IMG/VR virus record: IMGVR_UViG_2690316241_000009
Direction: 5' to 3' (one strand)
From: a virus
Taxonomy: Duplodnaviria; Heunggongvirae; Uroviricota; Caudoviricetes
DNA: 38,984 nt
The notes beneath the pieces are model-generated. The model saw only the letters and a list, made by a program, of their open reading frames with translations. It made no database searches and was not told where the DNA came from. This document shows positions 1 to 38,984 of the stretch, piece by piece. Made by a program: the position numbers and the translations under genes. The first letter of the stretch is position 1. Every line of letters begins with the position of its first letter.

Positions 1-996
1 TTAACGAACCAGCCAGACCAGCATCAGGATAATCGCGACTAACAGTATCCACAGCGCGGGACGCGTTGCCATATTTTGCAACGTGTCCATCATCGGTGGA
101 AAAGGATTAAGCAGCGGTTGCATAACACGCGGATCAATCCCTTTAACCCGCCGTTGATAAAGCTGATTAAGAATATCCTCGGCCTGGGCAGAAGAAAGCG
201 ATGATTGCGCAGAAAGACCATATTTTTGCTGGATATATGCCGATAACGCCGCCAGTTCACTGGCATCTAAAGGTTGTTTTAGCGTCATCTGTAGTGATTC
301 CAGCGTCGGCGTATTTTGCTGGCTTAGCGTCTGACGCGCCTGTAGCCAGGTCACCAGATGGTTAAACAGTTTCGCTGGAATTAACTCGCCATCTTTCACC
401 CCGGAAAGTTCCAGCATCGATTGCCAGATCTGTTTGCTGGGTTCCCCCGTTGCCGCCGCAAGTTTGGTCACCAGCTGTTTTAGCGCATTGTGCTCCGCCG
501 GTAATAAAGGACGGTCGGTCGCCTCGCGCTGCTGTGGTTGCGGAATAACCATCTTCCCTTCCTGCAACAGGGTGAGAATGGTTTTTAATTGCTCCGGTGA
601 GAGCTGATTCAGCGGCGTCTGACCAAAGTTATGACGGATATAATCCGTGACCGCCTGACGATTATTCCCCAGACGTAAATACTCCCCTAATTGCGCTAAA
701 AGCTGGCGGGCAGAATGGCTTTTTTGCGCGGCCAGCAGACGTTGCGCCAGATTATGCTCAGCGGCAGGGAAGTGACGCGAAAGCAGCGGTGAATCTCCCG
801 ACAGACCAATATCGTGCCTGATACCCGCCCACAGTTCTGCTCTTTGCTGTTGCGTCAGTGAGGTCACTTTCGTCATTAAGCTTTCCAGCGAAGTACGTTG
901 CTGACTGGATAAAGGCTGATTGCCCGCGCCAGACGGCAGGTTATCTCCCTGACCTGGTGGTTGCCCAGGAGGAGGGCCGGAAATAGGTTGTATCAT
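1..996 (-). CDS. flk: Flagellar regulator Flk (host gene)
   Basis: 331-aa ORF with a Pro/Gln-rich N-terminus and a single C-terminal hydrophobic anchor (ALWILLVAIILMLVWLVR), matching my recollection of enterobacterial Flk. Stop codon sits at positions 1-3. Confidence 0.8.
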   Translation of the reverse strand: MIQPISGPPPGQPPGQGDNLPSGAGNQPLSSQQRTSLESLMTKVTSLTQQQRAELWAGIRHDIGLSGDSPLLSRHFPAAEHNLAQRLLAAQKSHSARQLLAQLGEYLRLGNNRQAVTDYIRHNFGQTPLNQLSPEQLKTILTLLQEGKMVIPQPQQREATDRPLLPAEHNALKQLVTKLAAATGEPSKQIWQSMLELSGVKDGELIPAKLFNHLVTWLQARQTLSQQNTPTLESLQMTLKQPLDASELAALSAYIQQKYGLSAQSSLSSAQAEDILNQLYQRRVKGIDPRVMQPLLNPFPPMMDTLQNMATRPALWILLVAIILMLVWLVR

Positions 997-1198
997 TACG
1001 TATCCTTATACCTGAAATCTTCGCAAGTATGCCTGGCCGCGAGATTATGGCACACTTGTCCGGTTAACTCTCGTCTCATACAGGTAACACAAACGTGAAA
1101 ATCCTTGTTGATGAAAAAAATGATGATTTAATTTATTGATATAAAAGGATTTATATCAGCACGTGTCCACGTAGTGACCACATTTTCGAGTTACAGAT

Positions 1199-1230
1199 AA
1201 CACAAAGCCCGTTTTCACGGGCTTTGTGTT
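1199..1230. terminator. Perfect 13-bp stem hairpin, possible terminator between flk upstream region and the AT-rich islet
   Basis: aacacaaagcccg / cgggctttgtgtt inverted repeat around a 6-nt loop. No clean U-tract on either side, so function is uncertain. Confidence 0.35.
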
Positions 1231-1263
1231 ATCTGTGATTGTGGCTAAGCCACATGATTTATG

Positions 1264-2157
1264 CTATTTCCAGTTACAAGCAGCTTGAAGTGGTTTTAGC
1301 GCGTTTGACAGGCCGTTTAAATTGAAAGTTGCACTTACAGGGCTCTCATTATAAGGAGTTATTTTTGTATACATTTTGTTTGAGTTGGCTAGTTTTCGGA
1401 TGAAATCAATGTCATTACCTTTATAAAAAACAGCCTTTGTATCTGTAGATACTAGCCAGTTTCGCTCAACTGCTTTCTGTTTATCAAGACGATAAAGCAT
1501 GCTGGTTTGTTCAAGGCCTAAATATACATCCCAACTAAGAAATACTTCGGTTTTCTTTTCTCGGCAAGCTATAAACAGAGTAGGAGTAACCGCTTCTCCA
1601 AATGGAGTTCTGATATAATCATCACTTTCTAACGATAAAATTACATTTTTCGAATCATCAATTGGCGATGTAGTAATGGATGTGTGCCATTTTCCTACAT
1701 CTGTGGCTTTCTCTAATTTTGATTCAGCTTGAACAGCTTTATCCTGTGGGAATAGTTTATCGTAGCAGTTTAGTCTGGCTTCTTTATCATTTTCTGCTCG
1801 GCATTTAGATATCTCAGAAAGATTTGGTTGCTGAGCCTCTGTTGTTACTGGCTTTTCCGTTTTAGATTTTGAGTTTACAGATGGAGTAAATGTTGGAGAA
1901 AAAAAACGATCATAACAAGATAAACGTCTGTCATCATCTTTCTCATCAGGGCATTGATCTCTGCTTTCGAATTTTTCAGCAACTTTCGTTCGAGTCGGTT
2001 GTATTGACTTATCGTAACAAGAAAGTCTGTCTTTATTATTTTCTATTGCTCGGCACTGGAGTACTGCATTGAAGTTATTATGTTCAGTTGCTGCGTGAAC
2101 AGGCAGTACACTAATTGATATAAATGATGCACCTATAGAAAAAATTATATTTTTCAT
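1264..2157 (-). CDS. Secreted protein with three Cys-containing repeats, unknown function
   Basis: N-terminal signal peptide (MKNIIFSIGASFISISVLPVHA). Three copies of a C-x(n)-RLxCYD[KR] repeat followed by a ~150-aa C-terminal domain. AT-rich relative to flk. Confidence 0.6.
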   Translation of the reverse strand: MKNIIFSIGASFISISVLPVHAATEHNNFNAVLQCRAIENNKDRLSCYDKSIQPTRTKVAEKFESRDQCPDEKDDDRRLSCYDRFFSPTFTPSVNSKSKTEKPVTTEAQQPNLSEISKCRAENDKEARLNCYDKLFPQDKAVQAESKLEKATDVGKWHTSITTSPIDDSKNVILSLESDDYIRTPFGEAVTPTLFIACREKKTEVFLSWDVYLGLEQTSMLYRLDKQKAVERNWLVSTDTKAVFYKGNDIDFIRKLANSNKMYTKITPYNESPVSATFNLNGLSNALKPLQAACNWK

Positions 2158-2161
2158 TTTG

Positions 2162-2494
2162 TTATCCTTTTGGTTTAGTAAGAAACACTAAAATTCCGAT
2201 AATGATATCGCCAATAACCCATAAACTTCCAATGGTAATTAAACCTAAGCCTGTACCAATAACTACACCGGCTTTTTCGGCATCGGATGTTGCATTATTT
2301 ATTATTTCACTAGTGCCTCCCAGTCCAACTAAAAGCGTATAGATCATAAAAATATTAAATAATATAAAAATCCACTTAATGAGCTTTCCAAAAAATGAAC
2401 GCTTAAGTTTTTTTATTTGTTTACCGCAAGCAGGGCAATACAATGCTGAATCGCTCACCTCTTTCTGGCATTCAGGACATTTGATTAATGCCAT
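2162..2494 (-). CDS. Zinc-ribbon membrane protein, unknown function
   Basis: N-terminal CPECx(n)CPAC zinc-ribbon motif followed by two hydrophobic helices. Sits 5 bp upstream of the 1264..2157 gene, so probably co-transcribed. AT-rich. Confidence 0.6.
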   Translation of the reverse strand: MALIKCPECQKEVSDSALYCPACGKQIKKLKRSFFGKLIKWIFILFNIFMIYTLLVGLGGTSEIINNATSDAEKAGVVIGTGLGLITIGSLWVIGDIIIGILVFLTKPKG

Positions 2495-2755
2495 GTAATC
2501 CGCCTCCTTTGGATCAATACGAGTTGATATTTGTTACAAAACATTTTGATTTTATCAGATTTTTTTTTATTGATAAGTGTCAATTGATTAGCTGGTATAG
2601 AGTGAGACATAAAGAAGGTCAGATCTGTATCAGTAGTGATGCAAAAATCCCACAGTTTCATGGAATTTTTGCATTTAGAGCCGTGAGATAGGGTGCCTTA
2701 TCGACCTTACCCTGGCAACCGATTGACGGGGGATTACTCCCCCGTCGCGGTTTCC

Positions 2756-2896
2756 TTACTGCTTACACTGTAAGAACGCCGCAAACTCCGCTCCCCAGAA
2801 ACTCATCCGTATTTCGCACAGCGAACCGTGCAACATCCAGATGATGAGGATTACCGTCACGCAGAACGTGATGGCTGTAAGCGATTTTTGCGACAT
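2756..2896 (-). CDS. Hok/Gef-family type I toxin (46 aa), absent from the ORF track
   Basis: Manual translation gives MSQKSLTAITFCVTVILIIWMLHGSLCEIRMSFWGAEFAAFLQCKQ: a TM helix followed by the SLCEIR motif and an AAF motif, as in Hok proteins. A 9-bp perfect stem hairpin (gacggggga / tcccccgtc, ~2733..2754) lies just 3' of the stop. Confidence 0.55.
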   Translation of the reverse strand: MSQKSLTAITFCVTVILIIWMLHGSLCEIRMSFWGAEFAAFLQCKQ

Positions 2897-3086
2897 AGCA
2901 CTTGCTCCTTTTCCGGAGAGGCGCTAACCTTTCACTTGCTTAGGGTAGACGGTTAGGGCCTCGGTTAAACAAAAGTGTTTTCCGGGGCCTTTCCACATCT
3001 GGCCTTCGGGTATTCCCTCCGACCATCAGCCGAAAGGCACCCGCGCGTAATCTATCGCTTTTTTGTTACTCCGGCAATTCTGCTTG

Positions 3087-3347
3087 TTAATTCTTAGGTA
3101 AAGGCAAACTCATCTGATTGTTTCCCCTGTGTGAAGCTGGTAGCTCATGCCACGGGATACCTTCTGAAGAGTGAACGCCGGAGGCGTGTTTCGATGTGAA
3201 TTTATGGAAAGCTTCCAGTGTTGAGAAGCATACGCCGCATTCCAGATTGTTACACTGGTAATATTTTTGCCGCACGGTGTTTGAATCATTTTCCGGACGA
3301 CTTGTGCGGATACGGGCAGATGCGGCACAAAGCGGACAACGGAACAT
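3087..3347 (-). CDS. ogr: Ogr/Delta-family zinc-finger late-gene activator
   Basis: Starts MFRCPLC and has the CxxC...CxxxxC pattern with conserved RTSR and YYQC, matching P2 Ogr. Lies at the prophage end, transcribed outward as in P2. Confidence 0.85.
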   Translation of the reverse strand: MFRCPLCAASARIRTSRPENDSNTVRQKYYQCNNLECGVCFSTLEAFHKFTSKHASGVHSSEGIPWHELPASHRGNNQMSLPLPKN

Positions 3348-3538: not shown

Positions 3539-4561
3539 ATGGGAAGAGATATAACGCTGTACCCTAAAAAAGCAACTAGAAACGAACTTAAAAATTACCT
3601 TGAAAATTTAGGTTTTAAAAGGTGTAAACATTTGTGGGAATGGCCCCAAGGAACGTTGAATTACTCTTGGTTTGATGATACGGACTTCAAATCTACAGAT
3701 GGAGTTTCGGCTGATATATATCCTGTTTCAAATGACGAACTACACATATCTGGTAATAAATGGGCATTGCATGTGCGTAATTTATATAGCGCTAGTTGGC
3801 ATGATGTAAAAATGCTTAATGATGTTCTAAAAGGCGCACGGAGTCTTTTTGGTGGAACACTTATAGGTGATTATGGGAAAAATAGGTACGCTCCTCTATG
3901 GAAGGATTCTAGTAGTCCGATCAGTCGTGGCATTTCTTCAATATTTAATCATGTCCATCATGAGATTTCCGCTGTTAAACATGCCTTACCTGAACCTTCT
4001 ATTAAATTAAACCTACCGGAAGATGGCGGCTTATCCGAATACTTTGATTACATGCAATGTATGGATCCCAGTAGAGTTATATATAATGGATTAGTACCTT
4101 TTGCGGTTGCTATGTTTGAATATTTTTTCTCTAGAGCTTTTCAAATACTTATAAAGTACGATCCTTTCGCAATAGCAAAAAGAACATCGTATAAGCAAAA
4201 AGTTGATTTTGATATTCTGCTTGAGATAGAGAAAGGAAATATTTCAATAGAAAGTGTTATTGCAAGAAATTACACTTTTCAAAACTTAACCCACCTAAAT
4301 AAAGCATATAAAGAGTGGCTGGATATAGATGTGAGAGCGATTCTTTATAAGAAAAAAAGAATTGGAAAATCAGTTGATTTTCTTGAGAATCGAATTTCTG
4401 AAATCATACAATATAGACATGGGATAGTTCATCACTTTGAGTTGGATAGGACCTTAAATCGGGATGGATATATTCATATATTAGATGCGATAGAAAAAAG
4501 CATAATTGAATTTATCCATTACATAGAAGGCAAATACAAATTTAAATTAAATGCGTATTAA
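3539..4561 (+). CDS. AT-rich cargo protein (340 aa), candidate HEPN-like abortive-infection effector
   Basis: Inserted between ogr and D on the opposite strand, with a strongly AT-rich promoter region (3348..3538). C-terminal YRHGIVHH fits the HEPN R-x4-H motif. No P2 counterpart. Confidence 0.6.
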   Translation: MGRDITLYPKKATRNELKNYLENLGFKRCKHLWEWPQGTLNYSWFDDTDFKSTDGVSADIYPVSNDELHISGNKWALHVRNLYSASWHDVKMLNDVLKGARSLFGGTLIGDYGKNRYAPLWKDSSSPISRGISSIFNHVHHEISAVKHALPEPSIKLNLPEDGGLSEYFDYMQCMDPSRVIYNGLVPFAVAMFEYFFSRAFQILIKYDPFAIAKRTSYKQKVDFDILLEIEKGNISIESVIARNYTFQNLTHLNKAYKEWLDIDVRAILYKKKRIGKSVDFLENRISEIIQYRHGIVHHFELDRTLNRDGYIHILDAIEKSIIEFIHYIEGKYKFKLNAY

Positions 4562-37883: not shown

Positions 37884-37979
37884 GGCCAGAAAACTGGTTA
37901 GACCTGCTTTTTGTCTGGTCTGATTATTGCTGGAAAGAGGCTGGAGAAATTGTAGAGCGGTTCATTGGAGGGCTTCGTA

Positions 37980-38984
37980 ATGTCGATTAAGAAGCTCGAA
38001 GATGGTCGTTATTTGCTGGACATCAGGCCGAACGGACGCAAGGGAAAGCGCGTGCGTAAGGTATTTGACAAAAAATCGGTAGCGGTGGCCACTGAACGCT
38101 ACATCATGGCGAACGCTGAAAAGCGGGAATATATACAGGGCTACCGTGATCGTCGAACGCTAAATGATTTGCTTGAGTTGTGGTGGATGTATCACGGCCA
38201 GCACAGGCGTAAGGCGGAAGAAGACCGAAAACAACTGCGCAACATAATTAATGAGCTTGGCGCTGATATGCAGGCTGTGGATCTTGATAAGCTGAAAATT
38301 ATCGCGTGGCGTTCTCAAAAGATAGCTGAAGGATTGAAACCGTCATCTGCTAACAGGTACATGAATCGGTTATCCGGAATGTTTACCGTGCTGAAAAAAA
38401 TAGGTCTTTGGGATGCAGAACATCCAGTAAGGGGAATTTCTATTCTTTATGTATCTCCACGAGAAATGGCGTTCCTGTCACAGAAGGAAGTGGCGCTATT
38501 GCTCGATACACTGGAGGGCGACTACTGGCGTGTTGCGCTTTTGTGTTTAAGCACAGGGGCGCGCTGGAGTGAAGCCTGTAAGCTTCGTGGTGAACAGATA
38601 GTTCATAACCGTGTAACGTTTCTTGAAACCAAAAATGGCCGGAAGAGAACAGTGCCAGTTTCGCAGGCAGTTTGTGAGGCGATCAAAACCAGAGAAACAG
38701 GCAGCTTGTTTGAGGTGAAGTACCGGGAATTCTGCCTGGCGCTGAAAAGAGTTAAGCCCGATTTACCAAAAGGCCAGGCTGCACATGTGCTGCGGCATAC
38801 GTTCGCCAGCCATTTTGTGATGAACGGAGGAAACATTATTGCGCTTCAGAAGATTCTTGGTCACGCAACCATTCAGCAAACAATGGCATATGCGCATTTT
38901 GCACCGGATTACCTGCAGGATGCGGTGGCCCTTAATCCGCTGAAAGGTGGCGTAAGTGTCCACGCAGTGTCCACGGGGGATTAA
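37980..38984 (+). CDS. int: Tyrosine integrase (P2 Int family)
   Basis: MSIKKLEDGRYLLDIRPNGRKGKRVRKVFDKK matches the P2 Int N-terminus; C-terminal LSTGARWSEA, HVLRHTFASH and YAHFAPDYLQDA motifs. Stop codon is the last three bases of the window. Confidence 0.9.
   Translation: MSIKKLEDGRYLLDIRPNGRKGKRVRKVFDKKSVAVATERYIMANAEKREYIQGYRDRRTLNDLLELWWMYHGQHRRKAEEDRKQLRNIINELGADMQAVDLDKLKIIAWRSQKIAEGLKPSSANRYMNRLSGMFTVLKKIGLWDAEHPVRGISILYVSPREMAFLSQKEVALLLDTLEGDYWRVALLCLSTGARWSEACKLRGEQIVHNRVTFLETKNGRKRTVPVSQAVCEAIKTRETGSLFEVKYREFCLALKRVKPDLPKGQAAHVLRHTFASHFVMNGGNIIALQKILGHATIQQTMAYAHFAPDYLQDAVALNPLKGGVSVHAVSTGD

Follow-up and report, generated by a model that had tools for sequence, protein, structure and literature searches.

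A Hok/Gef-family toxin cassette with a predicted Sok-like antisense RNA, very probably cargo of a P2-type prophage in pdxB

The closest described relatives of the locus analyzed here are the hok/sok system of R1 and the hokB/sokB and hokC/sokC loci of K-12, which combine a small Hok/Gef peptide bearing an L-C-E core and a C-terminal Cys with an mRNA of approximately 350 nt that begins at GGGUGC and closes its 5′ end onto its 3′ end. Their leaders contain a GCCCC/GAGG hairpin, a GC-rich hairpin is found toward the 3′ end, and an antisense RNA of 55–59 nt, folded into a terminator hairpin behind an unpaired 5′ tail, starts approximately 40–50 nt upstream of the hok ATG with its −35 box over the hok SD region. 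Specifically, K-12 sokB is 57 nt long and sokC 59 nt, and the distances to the hok ATG downstream are 48 and 49 nt, respectively; the Sok-like RNA predicted here matches them in position and length. Our locus shares the other features as well, those of the RNAs as predicted. With respect to phages, hok is enriched in prophages (bioRxiv 10.1101/2025.08.07.668861), and the hokW-sokW module of the Stx2 prophage Sp5 has an antitoxin that depends on RNase III and Hfq; HokW is induced after mitomycin C, and deletion of the module halves phage release (Takada et al. 2021, PMC8621323). Our literature search found no dedicated description of hok in P2-like phages.

The locus lies in a 38,984-nt stretch of viral DNA (IMG/VR record IMGVR_UViG_2690316241_000009), hereafter the window. 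It is, in our judgment, very probably a type I toxin–antitoxin cassette of the hok/sok type that is carried as a moron by a P2-type prophage; this prophage belongs to the P88 group (Xuanwuvirus/Peduoviridae) and has the 5′ end of pdxB as its integration site. The cassette is a conserved unit of about 355 nt on the minus strand (about 3042..2690), and the coordinates of its elements are collected in Table 1.

Table 1. Features of the hok cassette and its surroundings (window coordinates)
Feature	Position	Strand	Details
attL core	1098..1117		AAAATCCTTGTTGATGAAAA; 20 bp, inside the 5′ end of pdxB; prophage–chromosome junction
fbi-like 3′ element	2691..2706	minus	GGUCGAUAAGGCACCC; complementary to 3042..3028; covariation
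3′ UTR stem-loop	2717..2752	minus	outer helix 2752..2748/2721..2717; inner 9-bp GC stem 2746..2738/2733..2725
hok-family toxin ORF	2756..2896	minus	46 codons, ATG start, stop TAA 2758..2756; from the ORF list
Coding segment encoding AEFAAF	2776..2791	minus	GCGGAGUUUGCGGCGU; pairs with hok start region 2896..2881
SD-sequestering local hairpin	2897..2925	minus	anti-SD CUCUCC 2920..2915 pairs with hok SD AAGGAG 2910..2905
hok mRNA 5′ leader	2897..3042	minus	146 nt
Sok promoter (predicted)	2902..2930	plus	−35 TTGCTC 2902..2907, 17-nt spacer, −10 TAACCT 2925..2930
24-codon upstream ORF	2924..2998	minus	start ATG 2998..2996, stop TAG 2926..2924; same frame as hok; 28 nt between its end and the hok ATG
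Sok-like RNA (predicted)	2938..2995	plus	about 55–59 nt, both ends approximate; 13-nt single-stranded 5′ tail GCUUAGGGUAGAC; terminator stem 2955..2964/2982..2991
GAGG box	2955..2964	minus	ACCGAGGCCC; homologous to mok Shine-Dalgarno of hokB/hokC (three-way alignment with K-12)
ucb-like box	2982..2994	minus	GGAAAGGCCCCGG; pairs with GAGG box in closed form, with tac in trimmed form
tac-like 5′ element	3028..3042	minus	GGGUGCCUUUCGGCU; pairs with 3′ fbi-like element (full-length RNA), with ucb-like box (3′-trimmed RNA)
hok promoter (predicted)	3049..3077	minus	−35 TTGCCG 3077..3072, 17-nt spacer, −10 TAGATT 3054..3049; start about 3042
ogr/Delta late-gene activator	3087..3347	minus	Pfam Ogr_Delta 48.1 bits; RefSeq annotation; directly upstream of hok promoter

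The toxin ORF encodes MSQKSLTAITFCVTVILIIWMLHGSLCEIRMSFWGAEFAAFLQCKQ, a peptide with a visible N-terminal hydrophobic stretch (residues 6–23) and the SLCEIR and AAF motifs. A sequence-only reading of this DNA had called it a Hok-family toxin, and profile searches bear this out: Pfam PF01848 (HOK_GEF) matches with 30.1 bits (gathering score 22; E 3.7e-7) over profile positions 5–42 of 42, and PHROG 251, ‘MokW-like host killing’, matches over its full length with 82.8 bits (E 2.5e-23). In a logo built from 1264 Hok peptides, the residues conserved at more than 80% are M1, C16, T18, L30, C31, E32 and E41 (bioRxiv 10.1101/2025.08.07.668861); all seven are present in the 46-aa peptide, as M1, C12, T14, L26, C27, E28 and E37, at a constant offset of −4 that also places C44 at logo position 48. 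Each of 68 relatives is named Hok/Gef, and 14 alignment columns are invariant, among them those of L-C-E and of the C-terminal Cys. Of 21 divergent homologues, 19 have an ORF of the same 46 codons, and dN/dS of the ORF ranges from 0.12 to 0.62, about 0.2. Taken together, these comparisons indicate that the ORF encodes a real Hok-family membrane peptide under purifying selection.

In terms of subfamily, the protein scores 35.8 bits against the NCBIfam HokA equivalog NF007290 (cut-off 89) and 23.6 bits against the Hok subfamily model NF007279 (cut-off 73), and since both values fall below the cut-offs we assign it to a separate subfamily rather than to HokA–E. Longer members of its cluster (59–81 aa) were considered as N-terminally extended Mok–Hok fusions, and this was rejected as they are C-terminal read-through variants. 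The gene had been described as unannotated, which applies only to the first ORF track; RefSeq names the identical DNA as WP_000078920.1, ‘Hok/Gef family protein’, and more than a thousand E. coli genomes in public databases carry an annotation of the gene. The cassette is thus already known in kind and belongs to a mildly divergent, uncharacterized subfamily, and the value of its description is modest, going little beyond tidy annotation. What annotation does lack is this subfamily's predicted antisense RNA and mRNA elements, which the Rfam gathering threshold misses.

Upstream of the toxin, the sequence-only reading had placed a GC-rich leader of about 190 bp. The composition is as described (54.8% GC, compared with 35–36% in the flanking cargo); the predicted length is shorter, at 146 nt, as the remaining stretch (3043..3086) contains the predicted hok promoter and adjoins the ogr stop codon (3089..3087). 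The −10 box of this promoter (TAGATT/TAGAAT/TAAATT) and its spacing to an invariant GCGGGTGCC are kept throughout a 21-sequence alignment, and the box aligns with the TATAAT of K-12 hokC. A consensus scan for promoters and terminators reported neither the hok nor the Sok promoter; the basis of the two predictions is sequence conservation together with homology to the K-12 loci. On its sense strand, the leader matches the whole of the Rfam sok model RF01794 (positions 1–157 of 157) with 51.9 bits (E 1.4e-9), a score below the gathering threshold of 59; the sense strands of the K-12 leaders score 118 bits (hokC) and 110 bits (hokB), and two relatives score 38–42 bits.

The mRNA, as predicted, also has features of the hok type. 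The full-length RNA (3042..2680) has a minimum free energy (MFE) of −160.1 kcal/mol (z −7.7) with closure of the 5′ end onto the 3′ end. This closing helix, formed by 3042..3028 with 2706..2691, contains 10 pairs that are about 96% kept in 21 homologues, with 3 of them changed on both sides; helices 1 and 2 of the consensus (tac/fbi) are paired in 95.9% and 96.8% of cases, and helix 2 is double-changed in 3/3 pairs. Over the consensus fold as a whole, 97.6% of cells are paired, compared with 38–41% when the alignment is slid, and double changes occur in 16 pairs (73 cells), figures to be read with the facts that the structure was built from the same alignment and that many of the compensatory changes do no more than set the E. 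coli-type clade apart from the Salmonella-type clade and hence represent few independent events. The homologues themselves were assembled from E. coli matches together with Salmonella and Klebsiella contigs, and an alignment-based scan gave 7 loci, some of them in contaminated assemblies. Conservation stops at about 2685–2690, and similarity among homologues and to phage P88 ends at about 2683–2685.

Within this fold, the hok SD (AAGGAG) is strong and lies 8 nt from the ATG. Its local hairpin (fold of 2925..2896) is predicted at −11.7 kcal/mol, the corresponding helix 7 is 99% paired across the homologues, and GCCTCTCC is nearly invariant. The start region pairs with the coding segment through helices 8 and 9 (13 pairs, about 99% paired), which appear in both MFE folds. 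Conserved helices of the predicted full-length RNA thus enclose the hok SD as well as the start codon. The ucb-like box, which forms helix 5 of the consensus fold, is almost invariant in the alignment. Past the stop codon, the strong 3′ UTR hairpin of the sequence-only reading is present as a 9-bp GC stem set in an outer helix, and 5/9 pairs of this inner stem (helix 14) show compensatory changes across the homologues. By analogy with R1 (PMC9841398), it is likely to be the hairpin that protects the 3′ end of the trimmed mRNA.

With respect to the antitoxin, a Sok-like antisense RNA is predicted on the plus strand within the hok leader. In alignments with annotated K-12 sokB and sokC, each of its predicted elements (promoter, start and terminator) meets its counterpart in the same order, and the predicted promoter parallels the TTGCCG-17-TAAGAT-CTGAATT-G found upstream of sokB. 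The −10 box TAACCT matches the consensus at 3/6 positions and is below the threshold of the promoter scan. The promoter elements are kept in the 17 homologues surveyed, with TATCCT, in Salmonella copies, as the sole variant of the −10 box, a conservation that the overlapping sense-strand helix and TAG stop could also explain. The RNA is predicted to fold at −23.2 kcal/mol (z −2.9) into the same shape as SokB and SokC, and its tail is U-poor, with only three U residues. The sequence-only reading had expected both Sok and mok in the leader, and for the Sok half an RNA with promoter and terminator can indeed be predicted. Overall, a Hok family match was found together with a predicted antisense and leader architecture, and the core of that reading stands.

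The mok half fared differently. A frame scan of the window copy found no mok frame overlapping hok, and no upstream ORF is conserved among the homologues surveyed for one (17 of the 21; Sal_P0031, Sal_P0022, Sal_P0022b and Sal_P0047 were left out). In K-12 hokB and hokC the annotated mok ATG follows the GAGG sequence, and the window has no counterpart; neither the alignment nor the upstream-ORF survey revealed an ATG, GTG or TTG after the GAGG box at the mok-start position in the homologues. The 24-codon upstream ORF is a possible truncated mok analogue. Its ATG opens frames of 61–87 codons that overlap hok in three relatives and is absent from Salmonella-type copies. Since mok is absent, the coupling step of R1 is not transferable as such, and a subfamily without a conserved mok might be used as a natural test case for the need for Mok coupling in the control of hok.

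Using R1 (PMC9841398) as the template for mechanism and hokW-sokW (PMC8621323) as that for phage role, the following sequence of events can be proposed. By homology with R1 hok and K-12 hokB and hokC, the full-length hok mRNA would be translationally inert, and gradual trimming of its 3′ end as far as the 2752..2717 hairpin would take off the fbi-like element. As predicted by folding, the trimmed RNA would then re-pair its 5′ end with GGAAAGGCCCC, and the released GAGGC would pair with GCGCCUC, stripping the anti-SD from the hok SD. The short-lived Sok-like RNA would bind the leader through its free 5′ tail and, as its homologues suggest, would block activation and trigger cleavage of the duplex. 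If Sok were not replenished, Hok would be made and the inner membrane would be depolarized. The MFE fold of the trimmed RNA (3042..2713) is in line with the central step, in that the 5′ end re-pairs with the ucb-like box, GAGGC is joined to GCGCCUC, and only 2 bp of the SD hairpin are left; the start codon remains paired to the coding segment, and the segments concerned are invariant, so covariation speaks neither for nor against them.

Several other readings of the locus must be weighed against this one. Control of a working Hok might be independent of mok, with Sok directing RNase III cleavage and directly keeping the leader from rearranging to expose the hok SD, and with GAGG, the old mok SD, reduced to a structural element of the RNA that also complements the Sok terminator. 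The lack of a start codon after GAGG in any homologue, the strong SD that hok has of its own, the shrunken SD hairpin of the trimmed fold and the existence of Salmonella-type copies without any upstream ORF all favor such control, and we regard it as quite possible, if short of an even chance. Its basis is nonetheless MFE predictions, on whose alternative pairing the invariant segments leave covariation silent and in which the start codon stays paired; moreover, an ATG preceded by a GAAGG box persists at −102 in E. coli-type copies, and in three relatives it opens a frame that overlaps hok as mok does. The related proposition that the 46-aa subfamily operates without Mok, having kept the mok SD box only as an RNA switch element (anti-anti-SD) and Sok-terminator complement, so that Sok would block RNA rearrangement rather than translation of a leader peptide, strikes us as somewhat doubtful. 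Far less probable is that the locus is a decayed hok remnant, like several chromosomal hok loci of K-12, in which an intact-looking ORF is never expressed and has no working antitoxin. The sub-threshold Rfam and NCBIfam scores, the missing canonical mok start, the drift of upstream ORFs in frame and length and the visibly damaged members of the family (Sal_P0031, read-through variants and partial proteins) would fit decay, but they must be set against an ORF length held in 19/21 divergent copies at a dN/dS of about 0.2, against a −10 box, SD, closing helix and 3′ hairpin conserved with compensatory changes, and against the spread of the cassette through E. coli genomes and inducible phage genomes and its movement as a precise unit between unrelated phage backbones.

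The role of the cassette allows a further alternative, in which it mainly serves the lysogen as anti-phage defense (abortive infection). The R1 hok/sok system has been reported to exclude phage T4, and the cassette sits among other AT-rich morons, including a HEPN-like gene, in a variable region of the prophage. [quoted passage not shown] Our cassette would more likely contribute to prophage addiction, to lysis and phage release, as hokW-sokW does in Sp5, or to both. One speculative link to lytic growth is suggested by its position. Because the hok promoter begins 9 nt past the ogr stop codon with no terminator between them, read-through could occur, and late-operon read-through in lytic growth could give 5′-extended transcripts unable to form the closing helix. 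If so, Hok production would be tied to the late phase of the phage.

Cargo status follows from the prophage boundary, which we place away from hok. The sequence-only reading had put the gene exactly at the prophage–chromosome junction; comparison with the empty site of K-12, in which homology ends at window position 1117, instead locates the junction at the attL core, whose sequence is repeated at the integrase-side junction in IHE3034. The phage records PhiR44_2 and Shae_phiSM end at window positions 1094 and 1101, respectively. The hok locus is therefore 1.6 kb inside the prophage, with two further genes (1264..2157 and 2162..2494; TagO-like and zinc-ribbon) between it and attL, and this more distant boundary reclassifies both as phage cargo. 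At the other end of the window lies the integrase (37965..38984), 99.8% identical to the IHE3034 integrase region; as the window ends at its stop codon, the second att site is outside the window. A search of 2400..2900 against the right part of the window found no att-like direct repeats, and an 11-nt stretch at 2726..2736, ACGGGGGATTA, that recurs where the integrase gene of IHE3034 ends was rejected as att core in view of the K-12 comparison.

Of the two options first raised for the gene, phage cargo or a marker of the integration neighborhood, the former is the one sustained, as the protein is identical in P88 and the cassette has close variants in PhiR44_2 and Shae_phiSM. The cassette is found between att sites and in induced phage P88, in PhiR44_2 and in the Citrobacter phage Shae_phiSM, and a search of 5426 complete E. 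coli genomes places it in 1750 of them (about a third). It also follows ogr in prophages at other att sites, occurs in lambdoid prophages and has been transferred between unrelated phage backbones as a precise unit. Some family members are damaged: Sal_P0031 lacks the 5′ GGGTGCC, C-terminal read-through variants occur and many proteins are partial.

Compared with R1, hokB and hokC, the window peptide is shorter (46 versus 49–52 aa), with an N terminus reduced by four residues, and its leader scores 52 bits on the Rfam model versus 110–118 for hokB and hokC. A mok start after the GAGG box is missing and the mok frame is not conserved. The loop of the SD hairpin is also 9 nt shorter than in K-12, which places the Sok −35 box over and downstream of the SD rather than upstream. 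With hokW-sokW the cassette shares its prophage location and the family phrog_251. We rejected the identification of the window gene as hokW, since HokW is a different 51-aa paralogue that starts with MKQQKAM and has a leader that, going by primer sequences, fits the canonical Rfam consensus; moreover, hokW-sokW resides in a lambdoid phage and our cassette in a P2-type phage. Stx phages additionally carry a copy of the 46-aa subfamily, at 82% DNA identity, between lom and the tail-fiber genes. The cassette is shared with phage P88 and other Xuanwuvirus/Peduoviridae genomes, in which it likewise lies directly after ogr. DNA identity to P88, P884B11 and Chuche is 93.6–96.8% over window positions of about 2683–3120, and that to PhiR44_2 and Shae_phiSM is 94.3–94.6% over 2600–3120. 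The difference is confined to the cargo past the 3′ end of the cassette, where P88 has a different small gene, whereas the window, PhiR44_2 and Shae_phiSM share the TagO-like and zinc-ribbon pair at this position; other prophages have no further gene between hok and their junction with the host, which is at serS or prpB.

Overall, the 46-codon minus-strand ORF is protein-coding and evolves under purifying selection. The ORF, the motifs of its product and the hairpin in its 3′ UTR are as the sequence-only reading had described them. The proposed identity as a Hok-family toxin was also borne out by Pfam HOK_GEF (30.1 bits versus a gathering score of 22, E 3.7e-7, profile positions 5–42 of 42) and by PHROG 251, 'MokW-like host killing' (category moron), which matched the 46-residue peptide over its full length at 82.8 bits. 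Matches to the NCBIfam HokA equivalog and Hok subfamily models fell far below the cut-offs, so orthology to K-12 HokA–E is rejected. Among 5.8 billion proteins we found 68 relatives, from E. coli, Shigella, Salmonella and Klebsiella; those that are named are all 'Hok/Gef family protein', and the full-length members are nearly all 46 residues long. Residues Q3, K4, G24, C27, E28, A36, E37, A39, A40, L42, Q43, C44 and K45 are invariant in a 25-member alignment. Moreover, the positions that are >80% conserved across 1264 Hok peptides (M1, C16, T18, L30, C31, E32 and E41; bioRxiv 10.1101/2025.08.07.668861) all recur in the window peptide with a uniform shift of four positions (M1, C12, T14, L26, C27, E28 and E37). 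Compared pairwise with nine divergent homologues, the window copy gave dN/dS values of 0.12–0.62, mostly ~0.2, and the 46-codon length is retained in 19 of 21 copies. The peptide is presumably toxic.

The gene had been considered unannotated, but it is already known in kind and named in public annotation. Specifically, many complete E. coli chromosomes match a 521-bp stretch (2600..3120) without a single difference; one of them is that of IHE3034, where RefSeq names the identical ORF 'Hok/Gef family protein' (WP_000078920.1) and its neighbor 'ogr/Delta-like zinc finger family protein'. The records of phages P88, Xuanwuvirus P884B11 and Chuche label the cassette gene 'MokW-like host killing'. 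Of 5426 complete E. coli genomes, 1750 carry the cassette, with up to 9 copies in one genome, and a 2026 survey catalogued 32,532 hok loci with a four-fold enrichment in prophages (bioRxiv 10.1101/2025.08.07.668861). What remains of interest is that mok is missing and Sok un-annotated in a very common Hok subfamily. E. coli-type cassettes were also seen in contigs that bear the names Planococcaceae MAG, Vagococcus sp. and Xanthomonas pisi (L009, L010 and L013; protein identity 100% in L009 and L010, 74% in L013), which most likely reflects assembly contamination.

Coordinates of the features in and around the hok cassette
Feature	Position	Strand	Remarks
att core, 20 bp	1098..1117		AAAATCCTTGTTGATGAAAA; within first codons of pdxB
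Long inverted repeat, near-perfect	1189-1240		CAGATAACACAAAGCCCG...CGGGCTTTGTGTTATCTG; just inside attL, downstream of TagO-like gene
TagO/VasI-like gene	1264..2157	-	Secreted product; Pfam VasI 89.6 bits; repeated 'RLSCYD' motifs
Zinc-ribbon membrane protein gene	2162..2494	-	
hok 3′ UTR hairpin	2746..2725	-	GC-rich, 9 bp
hok-family ORF	2756..2896	-	46 codons, ATG start; MSQKSLTAITFCVTVILIIWMLHGSLCEIRMSFWGAEFAAFLQCKQ
hok SD	2910..2905	-	AAGGAG, strong; 8 nt 5′ of ATG
Only sizeable upstream ORF	ATG 2998 to TAG 2926..2924	-	24 codons; in frame with hok
Predicted Sok-like RNA	2938..2995	+	13-nt free 5′ tail and terminator hairpin
Predicted hok promoter	-35 3077..3072; -10 3054..3049	-	TTGCCG, 17-nt spacer, TAGATT; -10 conserved
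340-aa ORF	3539-4561	+	Between gpD and ogr, opposite strand; 36% GC
Integrase	37965..38984		Window ends at its stop codon

In terms of location, hok is phage cargo and lies 1.6 kb within the prophage, rather than exactly at the prophage–chromosome junction as had been supposed. The junction was placed by comparison with the empty flk–pdxB site of K-12 and with the integrase-side junction of IHE3034 (L004). Host homology reaches window position 1117 and, past the IHE3034 integrase, restarts 20 bp earlier in K-12 coordinates, which identifies the duplicated core. The records of Escherichia phage PhiR44_2 and Citrobacter phage Shae_phiSM end at window positions 1094 and 1101, respectively, and both hold the TagO/VasI-like gene, the zinc-ribbon gene, hok and ogr, which together with the junction places hok among the cargo. 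As the window stops with the integrase, the second att site lies outside it. The annotated pdxB is 1158 nt in IHE3034 versus 1137 nt in K-12 because the gene takes a new 5′ end from the phage. The 'complete genome' of Escherichia phage 500465-2 (NC_049343.1, L002) contains the host genes flk and yfcJ and is thus a mis-delimited prophage. The Shae_phiSM record (OR565851.1, L007) annotates neither hok nor ogr, and its product names are displaced to the adjacent gene ('tagO' is given to the zinc-ribbon gene and 'ogr' to gpD).

The two genes between hok and attL are AT-rich (35% GC) and fall into PHROG 1848 and PHROG 6586, both of unknown function; PADLOC gave no match for this pair. The pair is absent from P88, which encodes a Hok identical to that of the window and whose similarity to the window ends at ~2685, the 3′ end of the cassette, with other cargo beyond. 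The inverted repeat by attL is probably a bidirectional terminator, and it attracts spurious Rfam matches (microRNA, rimP-leader). On the other side of ogr, the 340-aa ORF is a candidate defence moron; it had no match in PADLOC or PHROG and a sub-threshold match to HEPN RiboL-PSP (22.5 versus 28.4 bits), and it is missing from PhiR44_2, where gpD directly adjoins ogr.

The ~360-nt hok unit behaves as a discrete mobile cassette. In lambdoid and Stx prophages a copy with 82% identity separates lom from the tail-fibre genes. Further copies lie between gpJ and a tail-fibre gene, beside ykgM in O157:H7, and after ogr in a Salmonella P2-type prophage with an HU-like gene beyond; in Salmonella enterica, tandem cassettes lie ~495 bp apart (L026, 601-741 and 1095-1235; L027, 103-243 and 601-741). 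Other P2-type prophages, joined to the host at serS or prpB, end with hok, so a junctional position holds true there. Directly beyond hok at one Salmonella P2-type prophage end (L023) lies the enterobacterial sRNA STnc540 (Rfam 171.6 bits; 895-1092, minus strand), which may mark the integration site of that phage. The ykgM-linked copy of O157:H7 ATCC 43890 (L018) is the most divergent in E. coli (75% DNA identity). Its 3′ fbi element, GTCGCACCC, is degenerate, several residues that are conserved elsewhere are substituted (e.g. SPCEF, MWSEIAAF), and it may be a decaying chromosomal copy.

With respect to the transcript, cassette limits, promoter and leader length were taken from a 21-sequence alignment, in which similarity begins at the conserved -10 box and stops just past an invariant GGCACCC (2697..2691). 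The -10 box precedes an invariant GGGTGCC (3042..3036) by 7 nt, and the leader is therefore 146 nt; the remainder of the ~190 bp previously assigned to it is promoter, beginning 9 nt past the ogr stop codon (3089..3087). No terminator lies between, so ogr and late-operon transcripts would read into the leader, and these 5′-extended RNAs would be unable to form the closing helix. That helix joins the first 15 nt of the predicted RNA (3042..2680, 363 nt; -160.1 kcal/mol, z = -7.7 versus dinucleotide shuffles) to 2706..2691. The ends and processing of this RNA are predicted.

The cassette is conserved, and its covariation favors a closed mRNA form. RNAalifold gave a consensus of 72 pairs; paired cells make up 97.6%, versus 38–41% with the 3′ partners slid, in a count made on the same alignment from which the consensus was derived. 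Double-sided changes affect 16 pairs, in 73 cells (slid controls gave no more than 12 pairs and 18 cells; 0 of 500 shuffles reached the observed values), much of this covariation separating two clades only. Three pairs of the closing helix differ between the E. coli-type and the Salmonella-type copies (UA to CG, CG to GC, GC to AU). Also conserved are a leader helix pairing GGCCCCGG with CCGAGGCC, a local hairpin in which the hok SD is masked by CUCUCC (2920..2915), a helix of 13 pairs that joins the region of the start codon (2896..2881) to coding segment 2791..2776, and the 3′ hairpin, which covaries.

A hok-type leader and a predicted antisense region are present, as had been expected, and the core reading of the locus withstood the refutation test set for it. 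The 157-nt Rfam 'sok' model (RF01794) aligns over its whole length with 3042..2883 on the hok strand (E 1.4e-9); it also hits that strand in K-12 hokC and hokB (118 and 110 bits), and so represents the hok leader. Its score here, 51.9 bits, is under the gathering score of 59, and two relatives from the same subfamily score 42 and 38 bits, which marks this subfamily as a divergent branch missed by threshold-based RNA annotation.

On the plus strand, the anticipated Sok promoter and terminator can be predicted, collinear with K-12 sokB. Upstream of sokB stand TTGCCG, 17 nt, TAAGAT, CTGAATT and GCTAGG; the window has TTGCTC (2902..2907), 17 nt, TAACCT (2925..2930), TTCACTT and GCTTAGG, which makes G2938 the likely start. 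K-12 SokB (57 nt) begins 48 nt before the ATG of hok, and SokC (59 nt) begins 49 nt before it. The predicted RNA (-23.2 kcal/mol, z -2.9) has their shape, and their tails are equally U-poor. All 17 homologues surveyed for it keep the -35, the -10 and the region of the start, the -10 varying only to TATCCT, but the same bases are also constrained on the sense strand, the -10 is weak (3 of 6 consensus positions), and a promoter consensus scan did not call this promoter. Taken together, homology argues strongly, short of proof, for a Sok RNA here with a putative antitoxin function.

The expected mok frame, by contrast, is missing. In hokB and hokC the annotated mok ATG follows a GAGG box by 7–9 nt; the box (2961..2958) is invariant among homologues, and no aligned homologue has an ATG, GTG or TTG after it. 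A survey of 17 of the 21 sequences showed that the counterpart of ATG 2998 opens hok-overlapping frames of 61–87 codons in three relatives and no frame in further copies, and that the Salmonella-type copies lack it, so this defining feature of the R1 paradigm is lacking. In R1, tac/fbi pairing locks full-length hok mRNA, 3′ trimming allows tac–ucb pairing and releases the Sok target along with the translation signals, and Sok binding leads to RNase III cleavage (PMC9841398). If the window RNA were trimmed to its 3′ hairpin (3042..2713), its 5′ end is predicted to re-pair with GGAAAGGCCCC; freed GAGGC would pair with GCGCCUC, reducing the SD hairpin to two pairs. This modelled fold suggests direct exposure of the hok SD by the switch, and a mok-independent version of the system is possible, if less likely than not. 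Alternatively, a ribosome terminating at UAG 2924, the end of the 24-codon ORF, could melt the anti-SD pairing. The reading that the locus probably works like hok/sok stands; the reading that it has mok does not.

Prophage addiction and abortive infection are possible roles of the cassette, for which PADLOC gave no match. Among temperate phages, experiments offer a single precedent, hokW–sokW of Sp5, whose antitoxin is RNase III- and Hfq-dependent; mitomycin C treatment is followed by a rise in HokW, and loss of hokW–sokW halves the release of phage (PMC8621323). HokW is a different paralogue from the window Hok, with 51 residues and the start MKQQKAM.
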